A stretch of 64,000 nucleotides of DNA, taken from assembly GCA_963763045.1 (NCBI GenBank), contig CAVXNL010000019.1, positions 29,788 through 93,787 on the forward strand. Direction: 5' to 3'. The notes beneath the pieces are model-generated. The model was not told where the DNA came from. It saw only the letters and a program-made list of their open reading frames with translations, and ran no database searches. Shown in pieces: positions 9,466-34,552 of the stretch; positions within the stretch are counted from its first letter, which is position 1, and each line of letters starts with the position of its first letter. Origin of the DNA: an uncultured Planctomycetaceae bacterium. Lineage in GTDB: Bacteria > Planctomycetota > Planctomycetia > Gemmatales > Gemmataceae. Position numbers and translations under genes: made by a program.

Positions 9466-11107
9466 CTACTTCTTCGCCGTCTTGATCTGCTCGCGCAGGT
9501 AGTCCAGGGCCGCGTCGAGCTGCTTGTCCTTGAATTCCTTGGCCGTCTCCTTCGGCGGCTTGCCGTGGCGGATGATCTCGGCTTCGTGCTGGGCCTCGTC
9601 CAGGTCGTCGCGTTCCTTCGGCGTGAGCTTCACGACCTTGTCGGGCGTGACGCCCCATTCGTCCTCGTCCTTGCCGGTGGTGCTGGACTTGTTCAGGTTC
9701 TTGCCGCTCGGCCGCCAGAACGACGCCGTCGTCAGCTTGATCTCACCGGCGACGCCGGACGCCACTCTGAAGCGTCGAATGTTCTGCACGCTGCCCTTGC
9801 CGTAGCTGCGCTCGCCGACGATGAAGGCCCGCTTGTGGTCCTGCAGGGCCGCCGAGACGATCTCGCTGCCGCTGGCGCTCATGCCGTTGACCATGCAGAC
9901 CATCGGGAAGTCGAGCAGGCTGCCTTCGCGGAAGCCGCTGAATGTCGTCTCCCGGCCGACGCGCGGCCGGATCGACACGATCAGGCCGTCGTCGATGAAC
10001 AGGTCGGAAATCTTCACGGCGGAGTCGAGCAGGCCGCCCGGGTTGAAGCGCAGGTCGAGGACGAAGCCCTTGATGCCCTGCTTGGTCAGCTCCTCCATGA
10101 CGCCTTCATGTCGCGGGCAGCTGTTGCGCTGGAACGACGTCAGGCGGATGTAGCCGATCTTGTTCTTCTGGTCGATCATGTAGTCCCACTCGTCGTCCGC
10201 CTTGCGCTTGAAGCCGAGGACCGACTCGATCTCGATGCGAGCGCGGGTGATCTCGACCGTGATCGGCTTGCCGTCGCGCTCGACGGTCAGCTTCACCTTG
10301 GTGCCGGCCTTGCCCAGGATCTTCTTGACCGCGTCGATGAGGGCAAGCCCTTGGTGTCGATGACCTCGGGCGGATTGAGCGGATTGCCGTTGCTGTCCAC
10401 CTCGCGGATGATCGTGGTGATGATGTCGCCGGCTTCGAGGCCCGCCTTGTAGGCGGGGCTGCCCTTGATCGGCGTCACGACCAGCAGCTGGTCGCTGACG
10501 TTGTCCTTGCGGATCTGGATGCCGATGCCGGTGAAGAAGCCCTGCGTCTCCTGCTTGAAGCGTTCGAGCTGTTCCGGGATCGATGTAGGTCGTGTACGGA
10601 TCGAGGTTGCGCAGCATCGTGCTGCAGCGTGAAGTCGATGTCCTTGTGCTTGTCGAGGTCCTCGCGCTTGCCGAGCAGCTGGCGGACCTCCGCCAGCAGC
10701 ACCGTCAACTTCTCGTCGTCCAGGTCCTTGGCGTTTTTCAGCTTGGCTTCGATCTCCGTCGGCACCGGCTCGTCGATGCGGCGATACAGGCCGCTTGACG
10801 GCCCAGACGACCATCTCCGGCCGGTCACCTTCTTGATGTGCTTTTCCTTGATGAGCTCGACGACCTCCATGATCTTGTTGGCATACTTGGTCGGCCTCGA
10901 TCGCACTCAGCTTGGTCTCGTCGAGGATGGCATCGCGGTGCGTCTTTCAGGCCGTCGAGCGTGATCTTGCCGTCCACGAAGGCCTGGTATTCCTTGCGCA
11001 GCTCGCGGCGGCTCTCCAGTTTGGGCATACGATCGAGAAGAGTTCGGCCTTCCTCGGCGAGGGCGGCCGGGACCTTCCCGTCGATGGCCCATTTTGGCCA
11101 GGGTGCT
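9466..11107 (-). CDS. C-terminal processing (tail-specific) peptidase, S41 family with PDZ domain; several frameshifts; no own start codon or signal peptide, possibly fused to the upstream caspase-like ORF
   Basis: Pieces across overlapping minus-strand frames are Ctp-like: YANKIMEVVELIKEKHIKKVTG, FFTGIGIQIRKDNVSDQLLVVTPIKGSPAYKAGLEAGDIITTI (PDZ), GFVLDLRFNPGGLLDSAVKISDLF, and MVCMVNGMSASGSEIVSAALQDHKRAFIVGERSYGKGSVQ (catalytic Ser/Lys region). Confidence 0.85.
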
Positions 11108-27030: not shown

Positions 27031-28497
27031 TCAATCGCAGAACGGCAGCAGCGCCTTGCGCATCTCCGTCACGTCGTCGAACCGCTCGTCGGGATCGCGG
27101 GACATGGCGCGGTGGATGATCTCACCCAGGTCGTCGGGCACGTCGGGGCGGCGGTTCCAGATCGGCACCGGGTCTTCATGGAGGATCTTGAGCATCTGGA
27201 ATTCGTAGCGATACGGCAGGTCGTAGATCAGGTTGTTGGTCAGCAGGTTGTACAAGGTTGCCGCGGCGGCGTAACGATCGGCCGGCGGTTTGGCCTCGCG
27301 GAAGTTGGTCAGCTGTTCGGGAGCCATGTAGGCGATGGTCCCGCCCACGTCCCCTTTGAGCGTGACGCCGCTCAGCTTGGAAGCCTGGTAGATGCGGGCC
27401 AGGCCGAAGTCGGCGACTTTGACCACCTCACGCCCTTTCCGCTCCGTCAGCAACAGATTGGCCGGTTTGATGTCGCGGTGGACGTAATTCTTGGCGTGGG
27501 CGTATTCCAGCGCCTCAAGGAGCTGACAGACCAATCCCACTGCGCGGCCGATGGGCAGAGGCCCCTCCGCCCTCATCAATCGTGAGGCGTCGCTCCCGCG
27601 GACGTATTCCATCACGATGTACGGTCGGTCGTCCACCGTCCCCATCTCCCGAAAGGCGACGATACGCGGATGCTTCAGGTTGCGCAGGATGGACGCTTCG
27701 CGCAGGAAGCGCTGCAGATCGCGCGGCTCCGCGTTCACCGCCGGTGTGATCGTTTTGATCGCAAAGGGCGCCCCGTCGGACTTGCGGAGGGCGAGGCAAA
27801 CGACACCCATCCCGCCCACGCCGAGTTTGCGGACGACCAGGTAATTCTCGAACAGTTGGAGTTGTTGGCGCAGTTCCTCCTGGCACTCGCCGCAAATCGG
27901 GGCCAACTCCACGGGAAAGAGGTCTTCCGGTTGGGGTGTACCGCCGTCTTCGACCGGTGCGTGACAGCTGCGGCAGCAATCCGTGACGTCGATCGGCTCT
28001 TCGGGAACAGACGCCGGCGTTGGCGGAGCTTGCGGAGCCGGTGTCGGGAGGCGCCTTCTTCGCTTGCACACTATCGAGGAGCGGACCGAAATTAGCGACG
28101 CGGACGGAGGACTCCGCTTGAGCGGTGATGCGCCGGGGATCCGAAGCCTCCAGCTGCGCGGGCGGGCGCCGCCCTCGATCGTATCCGCCGCCTCATCTGG
28201 ATGTACGGTGACGGTGATAAGGCTCCGGCCGGCCTTGATCGTGTCGCCGTCCTGCAGATCCGCCGCATTGACTTCCTGGCCGTTGACGTAGGTGCCGTTG
28301 CGGCTACCCATGTCCATTAGCCGGCAGTAAGGCGGATTGACCTCCACCAGGAAATGGATGCGCGAGAAGTACTTGTCCTTGGGCGGCAGCCGGAAGTGCG
28401 CGAGCTTGGAACGGCCGACGATGAAACGATCGCGGCCGTCAAACGTGTAGACTCGGCCTTTGTTGGGCCCCTTGGTTACGGTGAGCGTGATACGCAT
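27031..28497 (-). CDS. FHA-domain-containing Ser/Thr protein kinase with a central Cys4 zinc-ribbon-like linker
   Basis: N-terminal FHA (FIVGRSKLAHFRLPPKDKYFSRIHFLV...GSRNGTYVNGQ), CCRSCHAPV...CGEC, then a kinase domain (GVGGMGVVCLA...FAIKT...HRDIKPANLLL...VADFGLAR...GTIAYMAPE). Confidence 0.85.
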   Translation of the reverse strand: MRITLTVTKGPNKGRVYTFDGRDRFIVGRSKLAHFRLPPKDKYFSRIHFLVEVNPPYCRLMDMGSRNGTYVNGQEVNAADLQDGDTIKAGRSLITVTVHPDEAADTIEGGARPRSWRLRIPGASPLKRSPPSASLISVRSSIVCKRRRRLPTPAPQAPPTPASVPEEPIDVTDCCRSCHAPVEDGGTPQPEDLFPVELAPICGECQEELRQQLQLFENYLVVRKLGVGGMGVVCLALRKSDGAPFAIKTITPAVNAEPRDLQRFLREASILRNLKHPRIVAFREMGTVDDRPYIVMEYVRGSDASRLMRAEGPLPIGRAVGLVCQLLEALEYAHAKNYVHRDIKPANLLLTERKGREVVKVADFGLARIYQASKLSGVTLKGDVGGTIAYMAPEQLTNFREAKPPADRYAAAATLYNLLTNNLIYDLPYRYEFQMLKILHEDPVPIWNRRPDVPDDLGEIIHRAMSRDPDERFDDVTEMRKALLPFCD

Positions 28498-28637: not shown

Positions 28638-29533
28638 TCACTCCGGATTCTCAGGCGAACCGTTGGCCTTAAGTTGCCGTGCCAGTGCTTCCAGGGTCTC
28701 TCGAGGTAGTGCGTGGGCGAGTTGTTCCACTGACAATCCCTTGAGGCGTTCCTCCGCAGGTAGACCCTTGAGGCGCTCCTCCGCGGGTAGACCTTCCATC
28801 CGCTCCGCGGGAGACAGTCGTTTGCGCAGTTCCTCCGCAGGCAGCCCCTTGAGCCGTTCCTCCGCAGACAAGCTCTTGAGGAGTTGGTCGATACTCTCGC
28901 GGACGTACTCTTTCAGTTTGTCGGACATGTCGGGTTCCTCGCTATAGACCCTGAGCAGATCGCGCAGCAACGTACTGGTTTCCTCCGAGCGCGACGGTAG
29001 TGCTCCTGGCCGTAGCGGAGCGATTCCACCCGCGCGCTGAATAGGAGGAGCATGGCATTCTGCTCCTCGAGCGGCAACTGATGCACCACGATGACGCGGA
29101 TGCACAGCGTCAGCACTCGCACTTCGTAGACGCCCGGTCGTATTGGCGTTAGCTCCACCTGCTGCGCGAGGTTTTGCGGATAGCGCACGCACACCGCATA
29201 CAGCCGATAGTCAGTCTCCGGCAGTAGGTCGTCCAGCGACGGACTGGACTGCTTCCGATAGTTGACGTAGTGGCCGATTAACTCCAAGAGCGCCCAGCAA
29301 TCGAGAGCCTCCTGGTGCGACTTGAAGGTCACCAGGTTATGCGGGGCCAGGTCCTCGAAGCCGTCAGGCAGCGGTCGCGGAATCGGCTCGGTCCCCCTGC
29401 GAATGAGGACGAGGTCGATAAACTGCTGCTTGAGCGACAGATCCATCTCCGGTTCCACACCGACGGCCGTGCCCCGGAAAAAGTCCATCCAGGACAGTCC
29501 GAACAGCCGGTGCAACGGTCTGGGTTCGCTCAT
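28638..29533 (-). CDS. PD-(D/E)XK nuclease-superfamily (Rpn/YhgA-like, DUF4351-type) protein with C-terminal tandem 9-aa repeats; frameshift near nt 28960 (tentative family call)
   Basis: ORF 28913-29533 (…HNLVTFKSHQEALDCWALLELIGHYVNYRKQ…) continues in ORF 28638-29192 after ...GQEHYRR into SEETSTLLRDLLRVYSEEPDMSDKLKEY..., then the repeats SAEERLKGLPAEELRKRLSPAERMEGLPAEERLKGLPAEERLKGL. Confidence 0.4.
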
Positions 29534-29723
29534 CTTTTGTCCGGCTTACGGCGGCGATCCGGCGCGTTCGATCGTGGTGCTTTCCTCCCCTCATCGTACA
29601 TCGGTGCGCACCGTTCAAACCATAGTAGCTCGATTTGTCGATTTCTCCCCTCCCCCCAACGTAGGCGCCTGCGGTAGTCTGGCGCACGAAAGTCGCCCGT
29701 CCGTCCTGCTGCCGAGGTGCAAC

Positions 29724-29864
29724 ATGTCCATCCGCCTCCTCCTGACGCTTTCCGTGGTTGCGGTGTCAGTCGCCGCGGCGTCGATGCACATCTCCCAACC
29801 GGTCCGGCCCATCGAGCAAGGCTGGTCGTGTCTCGAGACGACCTGCGCCGAGTTCGTTTGGTAA
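29724..29864 (+). CDS. small secreted Cys-containing peptide (46 aa), first of a possible tandem series ending in C-x-EFV
   Basis: MSIRLLLTLSVVAVSVAAAS (signal peptide) ...GWSCLETTCAEFVW*. Two further C-termini follow in downstream frames: CSECSEFVS* at 29963 and ...CDRRGRSEFVRQFW. Confidence 0.25.
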   Translation: MSIRLLLTLSVVAVSVAAASMHISQPVRPIEQGWSCLETTCAEFVW

Positions 29865-30045
29865 TTTCTTGCCTCGGCTGGTGTGTACGCCGCGACACCA
29901 AGTGCAGCGGATCATGCACTTGCTGGCGCCGCGTGCTCAGAGTGCTCTGAGTTCGTTTCGTAATTATGACCTCGCCCTGCCGTTTGGTGCTCCGGTTTGT
30001 GACCGGCGAGGTCGGTCGGAGTTCGTTCGGCAATTTTGGCTCGCT
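29825..30045 (+). repeat. three spaced copies of [short hairpin]+GAGTTCGTTYGGYAATTW, upstream of the P-type ATPase
   Basis: Copy 1 starts at 29850 after hairpin GGTCGTGTCTCGAGACGACC. Copy 2 starts at 29949 after CTCAGAGtgCTCTGAG. Copy 3 starts at 30019 after GACCGgcgaggtCGGTC. Spacing is 99 and 70 nt. Confidence 0.6.
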
Positions 30046-30256
30046 CGTCCTGGCCCCGTCCTCGGTAGCAGCCTGCGCGCTCGACACGTCATAAAGCGCG
30101 ATGCGCTGCTTCTTCAACAACAGCGGTGCCGATCGGCTCGCGGTGCCTACCTGTCCGGGGTGTGCGCCGGCTCCTGGTTTCGCACCGCTTGCCGCAACTC
30201 CGTGCCGAGCATAGCGTAAATCAGAGTCCTTCCGAATCGACCAGCCGGCAGTTCCC

Positions 30257-33200
30257 ATGCACCGCGAAATAAGCCACAGCGACCCGAACCACGACCAGGA
30301 CAGCCAACTGTCGCTCTACCTGCTGACAGCGCTTCTCGGCCTGCTGCTCGCCGCCGACCTGTGGCCGATGTTCGCCCGCTGGTTCAGCCCCTGGGGTCTG
30401 AAACTTCCCTCGTACAGTAATGAAGTGTACGGCAATCGGCTCGCCCTGTTCGCGGCTGTCCTCGGCGGCGCTCGCGCCTCTATGGTTCACTCGACGCTCT
30501 CTTCGCCGGCCGAGTGGGAGCCGACCTGGCACTGGCACTAGCGTGTGTCGCCGCCATCCTCCTCCGGGAGCAGCTCGTCGCCGCCGAGATCGTCTTCATC
30601 GGGATGCTCGGCGAATGCCTCGAAAGCGTCACGTTTGAACGCACTCAGCGGGCATTGCGGCGCTGGTCGAAATCTTCCCGCGCCGCTGCTGGCGGCTGCG
30701 CGATGGGCAAGAAGAGCGTGTGCTGACCACCGAATTGCAGGTTGGCGACAAGGTCGTGGTCAAGCCGGGCGGCCGCGTTCCGGTGGATGGCAGCGTGTTG
30801 GACGGCCGGTCGGCGGTGGACGTCAGCGCCCTGACCGGTGAGAGCCTACCGGTGGACAAGGGGCCGGGCGACGAGGTGCTGGCCGGCTCGCTCAACCAAT
30901 TCGGGGCACTCACCATCGAGGCGAAACGCGTTGCCGAGCAGACCGTCGCCGGCCGTGTGCTCGCACTGACGGCAAAGGCGCTCAAGGACAAGGCGCCGCT
31001 GGAACGCACCGCCGACCGGCTGGCCCGCTACTTCCTACCAGCTGTCCTCGGCCTCGCAGCGCTGACGTTCCTCGCCGGCATGATGATGTACGGCGGCAAC
31101 TGGTTTCGGCCGGCCAATTCGCAGAAACTGACGCTCGGCGAAGCGGCCCGGCACAGCGCCTATCCCGCGCTCTCGGTCCTGGTCGTCGCCTGTCCGTGCG
31201 CCTTGATCCTGGCGACGCCGGCCGCGGTCATCGCCGCGCTGGGACGCCTGGCGGGCACCGGTATTCTTATCAAGGGCGGCTCGGCCCTGGAGCGGCTCTC
31301 GTCGGTGAATGCCTTCGCCTTCGACAAGACCGGCACCCTCACCGAAGGCCGGCTCGAAATCGGCGACTTGGCTCCCCTTCCCGGCGTCGAGGCCGACGAC
31401 GTGCTGCGCGCCGCCGCGACCGCCGAGCAGCGCAGCGAGCATCTCCTGGCCCGGCTCGTGCTGCAAGAGGCGGCGCGGCGTAATCTGCACCTGGAAGAGG
31501 TCGCGGAGTTCAAGGCGCACCCCGGCGCCGGTGTCGAAGTAAAGACGCCATTGGGGATCGTCATTGTCGGAAATAGGCGCCTGCTGGAGGAGCAGGGCAT
31601 CACGCTCCCGGCTGAGGTCGCAGCGCTGCTGGAGCGCTTCGACGCTACTGGCCAGACGGCGCTGCTGGTGGTACGGGATGGAATCGTCCTCGGCGCGATC
31701 GGCGTGCGCGATCACCTGCGGGTGGAGGCCGCCGAGGTCCTGGCACAACTGCGCGGCCTCGGTATCCAACGTATCGCCCTGCTGACGGGCGATCGGCCGG
31801 CTGCCGCGGCAGGGGTGGCCGCCGCACTCGGTACTTCTTCTCCACTCCCCGCGCTCGGAGCGCCGCCGGAACAGGCCATCACGCAGGCACCGGCCGACGG
31901 GGGCGGGTCGCTATTAACCGAAGTGCGCGCCGAGTTACTGCCGCAGCAGAAGGCGGAGTTCGTCGCCGACTGGCAGCGCCAGGGACTGCGCGTGGCCATG
32001 GTTGGCGACGGCATCAACGATGCCCCAGCCCTTGCTCGGGCCGATGTCGGTCTCGCGCTGGCTGCGGCCGGTACCGACGTGGCTGCCGAGGCGGGTGACA
32101 TCGTCTTCATGAAGGACCCGCTGCAATCGCTGCCGCTCCTGCTCCGCCTGTCGCGCGAAACGGTCCGCATCATCCGCCAGAACATCATCGTCTTCGCCTT
32201 CGGCGTCAACATCGTCGGCGTGGTGCTGACCGCCTGGCTGTGGCCGATCTTCGCGCCGCCGGACTGGTACGAACAGTCGCCGGTGGTCGCCGTGATCTAT
32301 CACCAGCTCGGTTCGCTGGCGGTGCTGCTCAACGCCATGCGACTGTTGTGGTTCGAGCGGGCCGTCACCAACCCGACCTACGTCCGCTGGCGCGAGCGCC
32401 TGGACCATGTGAACGACTGGTTGGAACGCATCAGCGTCGATGACGCGGCTCACTGGCTGAGCCACCACTGGCGCGACGTGACGACGGTGCTGCTCGGTCT
32501 GGCCTTTGCCTGTTACACCCTGAGCGGCCTCACGCAGGTCAACGCCGACGAGGTGGCGCTCGTGCGCCGTTTCGGCAAACCGTTGCCCGTTAAACTCCGG
32601 TCCGGCCTGCACTGGTGCTGGCCGTGGCCCATCGACGCCGTCACGAAGGTGCAGCCCGACCGCATTCAGACCATCGAGATCGGTTTCCGCACGGTCGGTA
32701 AGGAGCAGGCACCGACCGCACGCGTCTGGTCCAGCACCCACAGCGGCGACGGCATCCGCCGCCTTCCCGACGAGGCCGTGATGATTACCGGCGACGGCCA
32801 GCTGATCGAGCTGCAAGGCTCGATCCGGTTCCACATCGCCGACCCGCACGTCTTCCTGTTCGAGGTCGAGGACGCGCCGTCGCTGCTGCGCGGCGCCGCC
32901 GAGGCAGTGCTGCGTGAGAAGGCGGCGGCGCGGACCTTCGACCGGCTGTTGACCGTGGACCGCGAATCGTTCCAGCAGGAAGTGTTGGAGCGACTGCGAG
33001 AACGCTGTACGGATTACGGATTGCACGGTCTCGGCGTTCACCTCGACGGCGTGTCGCTGCACGACCTGCACCCGCCGCAGGATGTCGTCGCCTCGTACCA
33101 TAGCGTGACGAAGGCGATGGAGAAGCGCGACGAGGCGGTCAACATGGCCAGGGAGGAGGCCGTGCGAAAAGAGAACGCCGAGTTGGGGAAGATGCGCAGG

Positions 33201-33607
33201 ACATTCGCCTCGCCACCGCTGAGCATGATGGCCGGCTGCGTCTCGTCCGCGCTCAGCGCGATGCCCTGCTCGCGCGCCTGAACGCACGCACGGGCCCATC
33301 GGCGGTAGGTGTGGCGATGCTTGGCGGCAGCGTCTTCTTCCGCGCCGGCCAGGAGGAGGTCGCCGGCATGACGGGGCGAGCCAATTTCCGCCTCTATTGG
33401 GAGGCCGTGGTGGACACGCTGAAGGACCGCCAAAAGATCCTGCTCGACGCCGACAAAATGCCGGAGCTGAGCAGTTTATGGCTGATGCGGCTGCTGCCGT
33501 TCGATTCGCTGCGCATGCCGTTCTCGACACGGCCGCCGGTGCTTCCGCCGGAAGCTGCCGTGAGACGAAAAGGGAGGCTCATTCCATGCGTAAGCTCTTC
33601 TGGCTGA
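30257..33607 (+). CDS. P1B-type heavy-metal-translocating ATPase (CPC motif, no N-terminal HMA domain) fused in frame to an HflK-like SPFH/band-7 domain; frameshifts near 30530, 30670 and 33195
   Basis: TM N-terminus (ORF 30257-30541), the actuator TGESLPVDK, CPCALILATP, DKTGTLTEG, MVGDGINDAPALARADVGLAL and the final TM ...LAVLLNAMRLL. The same uninterrupted 853-aa ORF then runs, with no stop, into a TM (VTTVLLGLAFACYTLSGL) and an SPFH domain (VNADEVALVRRFGKP...HWCWPWPIDAV...GVHLDGVSLHDLHPPQDVVASYHSV). The HflK C-terminus (RLYWEAVVDTLKDRQKILLDADKMPELSSLWLMRLLPFD) ends at 33607. Confidence 0.7.
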
Positions 33608-34552
33608 CCCTGCTCCTCGTCGGCGGAACGCTGCTGGCGTCGTCGTGCCTGTACTCGGTAGATCGCATCGACTTCGTCTATCTGACGCAGTTCGGCCGGC
33701 ACGTCGCCACGTTCGATGGGACGCGCGACGCCGATGCCGGGCTGCACGTCAAGTGGCCGTGGCCCATTCAGTCGGTGCAGCGCCTCGACCGGCGGCTGCA
33801 ATACTTCGACCTGCCCGGCGCCGAGTTGATGACCCGCGACCGCGATCGCAACACCATCGACAAGACGCTGACCATCGACGCCTACGTCTGCTGGCGCATC
33901 GCCGACGGCGAGGGCGTGGATCAGTTCGTCCGCACCGTCGGCACGGCAGAGAGTGCGCGGGCCATCCTTACGCAGCGGCTCGGCAGCGAGCTCGGCGCGC
34001 TGATCGGCGCCCGCGAGATGAATGACCTGGTCAGCACCGACCGGCTCGGCGGGAAGGTAGATGCGCGAGCGCGAACAAGCTCCGCGAGGAGCTGCTGAGC
34101 CGCGTGAAGCAGGTCCGGGAAGAGGCTGGTATTGAGGTGGTGGACGTGCGGCTGCGGCGCATCAATCATCCCGATTCGGTGCGCAAGGAGATCTTCGAGC
34201 GCATCCGCAGCGAGCGCGCGAAGATGGCCGCCGAGTACGAAAGCGACGGCAGGCGACAGGCCGCGGACATCCTGAGCAAGAGCGAGCAGCGCGATCGGAG
34301 AACCTCCGGACGCGGGCCAAGGCAGAGGCCGTGCGGCTGCGCGGCGACGCCGATGCGCGAGCCGACCGGATCCGCGGCGAAGCGCAGAAGCAGGATCCCG
34401 ACTTCTACGCCTTCCTCAAGAAGCTCGAGGCCTACAAGAGCATCTTCGGCGACAACAAGACCTTGTTGCTGCTCTCCACGCATCGAGAGATGTTCGACCT
34501 GTTCAACAATCCGCCGGGAATGAAGCCGGCGCCAAAACCGGGAGAGAAGTGA
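33586..34552 (+). CDS. hflC: HflC-like SPFH-domain membrane protease modulator; frameshifts near 34060 and 34320
   Basis: MRKLFWLTLLLVGGTLLASS (TM), HVKWPWPIQSVQRLDRRLQYFD, TIDAYVCWRI, then after shifts EIFERIRSERAKMAAEYESDG and RLRGDADARADRIRGEAQKQDPDFYAFLKKLEAYKSIFGDNKTLLLLS. The start overlaps the hflK-like stop. Confidence 0.75.

Follow-up and report, generated by a model that had tools for sequence, protein, structure and literature searches.

A triplicated module upstream of a Gemmataceae P-type ATPase gene is one locus of a family of tandem arrays with a conserved 20-nt core

What is the short module that occurs three times in the 720-nt gap separating a minus-strand ORF (28913–29533) from a P-type ATPase gene that starts at 30257, in a Gemmataceae contig? 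A sequence-only reading of the window (the whole 64-kb stretch of DNA analysed here) had described three copies of a hairpin followed by a conserved motif, and had offered as explanations small peptide genes, control elements of the ATPase gene and a small structured RNA. The search of relatives for the motif, which that reading had proposed, proved decisive and revealed a wide family of arrays.

The repeated module in the window

The pattern GAGTTCGTTYSGYAATT is found three times on the plus strand, at 29850, 29949 and 30019, with spacings of 99 and 70 nt, and no fourth copy exists anywhere in the 64-kb window when up to two mismatches are allowed. Shuffled sequences are expected to give 0.08 matches and none of 100 shuffles reached three; the three-copy module with a constrained nucleotide core, as originally reported, is thus genuine and far beyond chance. 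The family PWM gives 31, 29 and 24 bits for the three copies (Table 1), and nothing else in the window scores 12 bits or more. Identity between the units is confined to a 23-nt block, and the remainder of the 99-nt and 70-nt units aligns poorly. The earlier consensus, with GG at positions 11–12, does not fit copy 2, which has CG there and represents a GAG...TTTCG sub-variant also present in L149, L185 and L091.

Table 1. Coordinates of the features at the array locus in the window and of the in-gene copies in tgt
Feature	Position	Strand	Basis or remark
ORF1, 46-aa orphan ORF; its stop is the TAA of core copy 1	29724..29864	+	no homologue
Hairpin 5' of copy 1, GGTCGT/ACGACC, 6 bp, 8-nt loop	29824..29843	+	z −1.13, not significant alone
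Core copy 1 (ccGAGTTCGTTTGGTAATTt)	29848..29867	+	exact pattern match; 31.2 bits, family PWM
Hairpin at copy 2, CTCAGAG/CTCTGAG, 6–7 bp	29935..29952	+	z −0.87
Core copy 2 (ctGAGTTCGTTTCGTAATTa)	29947..29966	+	pattern match; 28.7 bits; GAG...TTTCG variant
Hairpin 5' of copy 3, GACCGGC/GTCGGTC, 3-nt loop	30000..30018	+	z −1.30
Core copy 3 (cgGAGTTCGTTCGGCAATTt)	30017..30036	+	pattern match; 24.3 bits, family PWM
Lineage-specific intergenic segment holding the array	29534..30184	.	missing at orthologous locus L121
ATPase upstream block kept in L121	30185..30256	+	homology with L121
tgt hypervariable in-frame loop after RTVRWARRA	L158:100-330; L204-L206 ~10500-10620	cores antisense to tgt	proteins P0243-P0260

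A short hairpin is indeed present before each copy, but the 8–10-bp perfect hairpins first described are not: the stems have 5–8 bp and fold no better than shuffles. The hairpin of copy 1 ends 6 nt short of the motif, the 3' arm of the hairpin at copy 2 overlaps the GAG of the motif, and the hairpin of copy 3 has five Watson–Crick pairs, or 7–8 pairs if G–T is counted, the ends falling in differing registers (−6, +3 and −1). A longer imperfect hairpin, with 25-nt arms of 80% complementarity, spans 29882–29939. The 56-nt modules (n = 3) have z-scores of −0.9 to −1.3 relative to shuffles, and the whole region of the array likewise shows no significant RNA fold. Watson–Crick hairpins of at least 5 bp ending at −8 to +3 are found at 7.7% of window positions, and the nominal p for all three copies having one is ~5e-4 in a post hoc test.

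A family of arrays around an asymmetric core

A first scan of the genome collection, with the pattern GAGTTCGTTNNGNAATT, was too degenerate, about one-eighth of its matches fitting Y-S-Y, as by chance. It nonetheless gave tandem pairs in two MAGs (L064, from Bryobacteraceae, and L091, labelled Dehalococcoidia) and two loci with copies within genes (L038 and L083). A scan of metagenome contigs with a two-copy pattern, the cores being 41–71 nt apart, returned 71 loci against a chance expectation far below one. The window triplet is one locus of this undescribed family of tandem arrays, which has members in at least two phyla of soil bacteria. The arrays consist of 2–7 direct copies, all on one strand, with a period mostly of 41–48 nt (full range 36–99 nt); the spacing shows no helical phasing and the periods are mostly not multiples of 3. 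The family core, tTGG(G/A)GTTCGTTT[C/G/T]G[T/C]AATTt, is 20 nt long and asymmetric. Positions left free by the search are conserved nevertheless, namely T at −3 (73%), G at −2 (88%), T at +7 (86%), Y at +10 (97%) and T at +15 (71%). Furthermore, A never occurs at +8, and as a consequence the reverse strand of the core is, on inspection, open in all three frames.

The host contigs have 51–68% GC and the hosts include Gemmataceae and Bryobacteraceae; one neighbour protein carries a Solibacter C-terminal domain. Copy number is low, with one array in the 64-kb window and no cores beyond those of tgt in three 21-kb Bryobacteraceae loci, and solitary extra cores near arrays were rejected as low-quality chance matches. 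Spacers are GC-rich, and on the strand of the core they are modestly enriched in G and T (GC skew +0.14, above zero in 40 of 62 arrays). In L138 and L190, the first core is preceded, at a distance of 7 nt, by an inverted half-core (AAACGAACYC), and the two could pair as a 10-bp hairpin; inverted half-sites beside the array are seen in only 2 of 62 arrays. A three-copy array with identical flanks is present on both strands of one contig (L174 and L180), reflecting either an inverted duplication or a chimeric assembly. The only array found in the viral contigs scanned is AT-rich (L202:480-830; IMG/VR UViG 641201233, 168 kb). Its tandem unit, GATCGAACCGTTTCGTACCCATCGAACTGGTTCGTTTAGTAATTT, has GTTCGTTTAGTAATT in common with the core, but position +8 is A, and the array is probably an unrelated viral repeat.

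Orthologous pairs of arrays demonstrate that the core is under selection and that spacer sequence and length are free. L136 and L188 agree fully in both cores and in 2–3 bases beside them; the 25-nt spacer cannot be aligned between them, and their flanks are ~70% identical. L148 and L189 have common flanks, yet their period and copy number differ, and the difference between L159 and L196 is a gain of units. Within an array, spacers can be near-identical (L143, L133, L187 and L185) or unrelated, with the core alone shared (L184, L146, L150 and the window). The uniform-spacer and unrelated-spacer arrays look like young and old stages of one process, tandem duplication followed by decay of all but the core.

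Cores are also present within coding sequences. In the tgt gene of L158, two 45-nt units run antisense to the gene, each consisting of a core after an 8-bp GC hairpin, and alignment to solved Tgt structures places them as a 33-aa in-frame insertion. Bryobacteraceae Tgt proteins of 82–98% identity carry 0, 1 or 2 core-encoded peptides NY[RKEQ]TNP in this loop, with divergent residues between them, and in the tgt DNA of four Bryobacteraceae the cores are kept and the spacers diverged. The hairpin 5' of the tgt core is GGCAGGGC/GCCCTGCC in L158 and GCGCGCCC/GGGCGCGC in L206. Other long ORFs across arrays were dismissed as mostly spurious N-terminal extensions. Two exact cores, in two frames, lie in a BNR-like gene of a Terriglobia MAG. 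Five cores in both orientations, including two inverted pairs, lie in the coproporphyrin ferrochelatase gene of an Acidobacteriaceae MAG (L083:5400-6175), where they encode FLPNEP, GVRLVI and GSFGAN and leave the length of the protein unchanged relative to solved homologues.

Family-wide, a hairpin of at least 5 bp adjoins the core in 8.4% of copies, compared with a background of 8.1%, and hairpins of 6–7 bp or more are only 2–3-fold enriched. Hairpin-then-core units with differing stem sequences are found in L158, L206 and the window, so that the adjoining hairpin is recurrent in some lineages and not general across the family. Family spacers show no general excess folding either (mean z, −0.43 on one strand and −0.32 on the other).

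Peptides, neighbouring genes and known elements

Under the peptide explanation, the locus would be a tandem set of genes for small Cys peptides (metallophore or RiPP precursors) that share the C-terminal end C-x-x-C-A/S-E-F-V. Copies 1 and 2 do coincide with the stops of small ORFs, the TAA of copy 2 being the stop of a 26-aa GTG ORF (ORF2) in frame with ORF1; copy 3 lies in a different frame and has no stop. ORF1 has a hydrophobic N-terminus, two Cys and a Shine–Dalgarno-like GAGG, and its sharing one frame with ORF2, 33 codons apart, also counts in favour of such genes. However, a search of 1.84 billion representative proteins found no homologue of ORF1, only ORF1 itself and one spurious repetitive protein, and neither Pfam nor NCBIfam gave a match. 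Moreover, the E-F-V codons, with the rare GTT among them, do not differ though the flanks have diverged, copy 3 is out of frame, the array periods across the family mostly fail to keep a reading frame, and other genomes read the same core in five different frames. The apparent sharing of ORF ends results from the TAA contained in the core, which 75% of family copies have (in one forward frame). ORF1 is probably not a real gene, and the Cys-peptide explanation is near to being refuted.

ORF-based readings are in any case fragile in this stretch because of single-base deletions. Relative to relatives, four genes within 28638–29533 and 30257–34500 are broken into several frames by such deletions (for example, window CTCGCG-CCTC and TTGCG-GCGC compared with L121): the ATPase–Band-7 fusion, the two following Band-7 (HflK/C-like) genes and the left-hand 206-aa ORF on the minus strand. 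Either the broken genes are successive pseudogenes or the assembly has local indel errors here.

The array and the ATPase gene share a strand, and 220 nt separate the array from the start of the gene; this placement speaks for repeated operator or attenuator elements through which a metal-responsive regulator would control the P-type ATPase. The gene (30257–33281) encodes a P1B-type ATPase with a C-terminal Band-7/SPFH fusion and is followed by two more Band-7 genes; this architecture of ~1090 aa is conserved in hundreds of sequences with the source label Gemmataceae. In the closest relative with DNA (L121, ATPase 83% identical at the protein level), however, the gap upstream of the ATPase is 97 nt long and has no motif. 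The entire 650-nt region is absent there, and homology to the window starts only at ~30185, where the conserved leader of the ATPase begins. The block kept in L121 (Table 1) is probably the ATPase's own promoter and leader, separate from the array. In other close relatives (the P0003 to P0006 loci), each ATPase gene has different genes upstream. The left-hand ORF belongs to a family of >1300 members from Gemmataceae metagenomes, 75–82% identical, in which no Pfam domain was found and which may be a multi-copy or mobile gene; its members are hypothetical proteins of 262–280 aa with C-terminal repeats such as LKGLPAEER. As a partner of the array, the left neighbour was rejected, the motif being missing from nine other loci of that gene family. 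Since the motif is missing from both L121 and these nine loci, and since the genes upstream of the ATPase differ among relatives, the array belongs to neither neighbour.

The other arrays lead to the same conclusion. None of the 71 is flanked by an ATPase; their flanking genes represent 90 Pfam families, none of them in more than two loci (for example, ThiC, ScpA, helicases, amidases and histidine kinases). The orientation of the neighbours is unbiased (upstream, same 10–18 and opposite 13–25; downstream, same 12–19 and opposite 12–21), whether or not genes are filtered by GC3 to keep real ones, and some arrays begin 17–30 nt past a stop codon. No gene co-occurring with the arrays and no candidate binding protein was found among array neighbours. 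L184 (3610–4617) and the window (27031–28497) have in common a Ser/Thr protein kinase gene that is upstream of the array and opposite in strand; the two are 31% identical over the kinase domain, such kinases are common in these phyla and the shared neighbour is probably a coincidence. The array in the window does not regulate the adjacent ATPase gene, and control by a metal-responsive regulator is close to refuted. What survives of that proposal is its generic part, a repeated binding site, without the link to the ATPase and to metal sensing. Collectively, the small Cys-peptide ORFs and the metal-pump link are artefacts of reading a single locus.

The suggestion of a small structured RNA fares poorly as well, with no excess folding in the window or in family spacers and no relevant Rfam 15 match for the window region at E ≤10 or for 18 family loci at E ≤1; the whole window gives nothing at gathering score. 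The exclusion of a CRISPR array (repeats of at least 23 nt, unique spacers, and cas genes or a leader) is upheld: the core has 20 nt, the spacers are often near-identical within an array, cas families are absent among the neighbours, and the sole Rfam CRISPR match is noise located elsewhere. An intrinsic terminator was rejected, as there is one weak match on copy 3, no more than in shuffles, and the upstream orientation is unbiased; a strict scan detected terminators flanking none of 53 arrays. As for a promoter, no sigma-70-like site turned up, and inspection showed a spacing wrong for sigma-54 or an extended −10. No complementarity or similarity to E. coli rRNA or tRNA was detected, and no tRNA genes lie near arrays. 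Plasmid iterons or partition sites were likewise discarded, since 72,556 plasmids contain no arrays and only chance 20–30-nt matches, and since the array neighbours are housekeeping genes. A literature search by sequence and by keywords retrieved no description of the core. The core is without an account in Rfam, plasmid records or the searchable literature.

What may read the core, and comparison with known repeats

A 20-nt core that stays letter-perfect across at least two phyla as its surroundings mutate must be read by something, perhaps a DNA-binding protein, an HUH enzyme or an RNA partner. We tentatively favour, as a possibility still well short of established, an expandable, low-copy array of sites at which a putative sequence-specific protein would recognise DNA. 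The core would be the DNA-level recognition site of a putative trans-acting protein and the array a multi-site platform, whose units may be gained and lost through slippage or unequal recombination. A DNA-level site is favoured because the constraint is on nucleotides, is indifferent to neighbours and orientation and is compatible with an antisense place in an essential gene. The cores that are antisense in tgt, in two frames in the BNR-like gene and in both orientations in the ferrochelatase gene count in the same direction. We infer a constraint at the level of DNA, not of RNA, and a protein that reads the core. Against a protein site stand the lack of a candidate binder among the neighbours and the absence of helical phasing. 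In addition, the G/T excess of the spacers counts against a purely double-stranded site, which would not impose a strand bias, and the recurrent 5' hairpins with differing sequences hint at a single-stranded form, RNA or ssDNA. The presence of the same 20-nt site in Planctomycetota and Acidobacteriota implies a reader that is either very conserved or horizontally spread. A bolder and distinctly doubtful version is that the arrays are polar chromosomal landmarks, the core being read by a putative widely conserved DNA-binding protein of soil Acidobacteriota and Planctomycetota. They might serve, for example, as roadblocks to replication forks or transcription, or as loading or organisation sites, which would explain the few arrays per genome, the indifference to orientation, the tolerance in genes and the long persistence.

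The G/T bias of the spacers and the recurrent hairpin-then-core module keep single-stranded readings alive, each of which we regard as unlikely, to about the same degree. In one of them the unit would be a substrate of a single-strand (HUH-type) transposase, a relaxase or a Rep protein: the GC hairpin and the conserved 17–20-nt tail would form a cleavage or recognition module, the arrays and in-gene copies would be footprints of mobility, and the core would be maintained by ongoing action of the enzyme and not by a host function. Hairpin-then-core units in the window, L158 and L206 (with a different stem), the units inserted in frame within tgt, the scatter of arrays over unrelated sites in any orientation and hosts that include both Gemmataceae and Bryobacteraceae are consistent with such an enzyme, and REP elements, as tagged palindromes that also occur within genes, offer a parallel (PMC3733652). 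However, the hairpin is no more frequent beside the core than in the background when the family is taken as a whole, the copy number in the 64-kb window and the three 21-kb loci is very low, no transposase-like gene adjoins the arrays, no terminal inverted repeats or target duplications were seen, and orthologous sites of different species retain arrays whose cores are perfect. The other single-stranded possibility is a transcribed array whose U-rich core, with or without the hairpin, would be a binding site for protein or RNA, either as a CsrB/RsmZ/NrsZ-like sponge or modular sRNA, or as a weak terminator-like unit. Modular repeated sRNAs are known, NrsZ being one (PMC4253122), and the common strand of the copies in each array, the G/U-rich bias of that strand, variable positions that are mostly transitions tolerable by wobble pairing (Y at +7, Y at +10 and R at −1), the hairpin followed by a U-rich tail in some units and the one terminator-like match on copy 3 all agree with it. 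By contrast, the orientation relative to neighbouring genes is unbiased, some arrays lie 17–30 nt after a stop codon or antisense inside tgt, excess structure is missing from the window and the spacers, canonical terminators do not flank the arrays, and neither an Rfam match nor complementarity to rRNA or tRNA was obtained. Whichever reader the core has, its identity would add to what is understood of Acidobacteriota and Planctomycetota, two phyla that abound in soil and for which hardly any cis-elements have been defined by experiment.

Iterons, transposon-end sites and polar Ter sites are asymmetric sites of 17–22 bp, present in 3–7 direct copies with one orientation per cluster. The arrays resemble iterons in having an asymmetric site in direct copies of shared orientation. 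They differ in that no rep, par or transposase gene adjoins them, nothing similar occurs on plasmids, the spacing is variable and not ~22 bp, and the surroundings are chromosomal housekeeping genes.

REP elements are tagged palindromes, sometimes intragenic, known from several phyla including Planctomycetes (PMC3733652). The arrays share with REP elements and BIMEs the nature of a short non-coding repeat, with a hairpin and a conserved unpaired tag, clustered in gaps and occasionally in genes. However, their conserved part is a non-palindromic 20-nt core, whereas the REP unit is an imperfect palindrome of 20–40 bp; the hairpin is optional and variable and the units are all direct. The very low copy number in the 64-kb window and three 21-kb loci also contrasts with the high number of REP elements per genome, and there is no GTAG/CGTC tag at the window hairpins and no RAYT gene nearby. 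In mycobacteria, MIRUs are minisatellites (PMC3635867), and a 57-bp VNTR has been described within leuA (PMC2704214). Such elements have 40–100-nt tandem units, dispersed between genes or in frame within them, with a copy number that varies among relatives, and the arrays are alike in their periods of 36–99 nt, their 2–7 copies and the tgt alleles with 0, 1 or 2 units. In MIRUs, however, the whole unit is repeated and the distribution is limited to one genus, whereas the arrays keep a 20-nt core in at least two phyla as the remainder of the unit turns over; within a locus the whole unit is homogeneous in some arrays (L143, L133, L187 and L185) and not in others (L184, L146, L150 and the window). 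Rickettsia palindromic elements insert in frame into genes (PMC10969869), and the in-frame units in unrelated housekeeping genes that stay intact are comparable with the tgt loop. Nevertheless, these elements are palindromes of ~150 bp, found in a single genus in tens of copies, and, unlike this family, they have neither tandem arrays nor a short invariant core. The lack of a palindromic unit, of high copy number in the stretches scanned, of consistent whole-unit repetition and of restriction to one genus thus sets the family apart from REP, MIRU/VNTR and Rickettsia elements, and we file the arrays as short interspersed tandem repeats with an unusually long, asymmetric core that is conserved across phyla.
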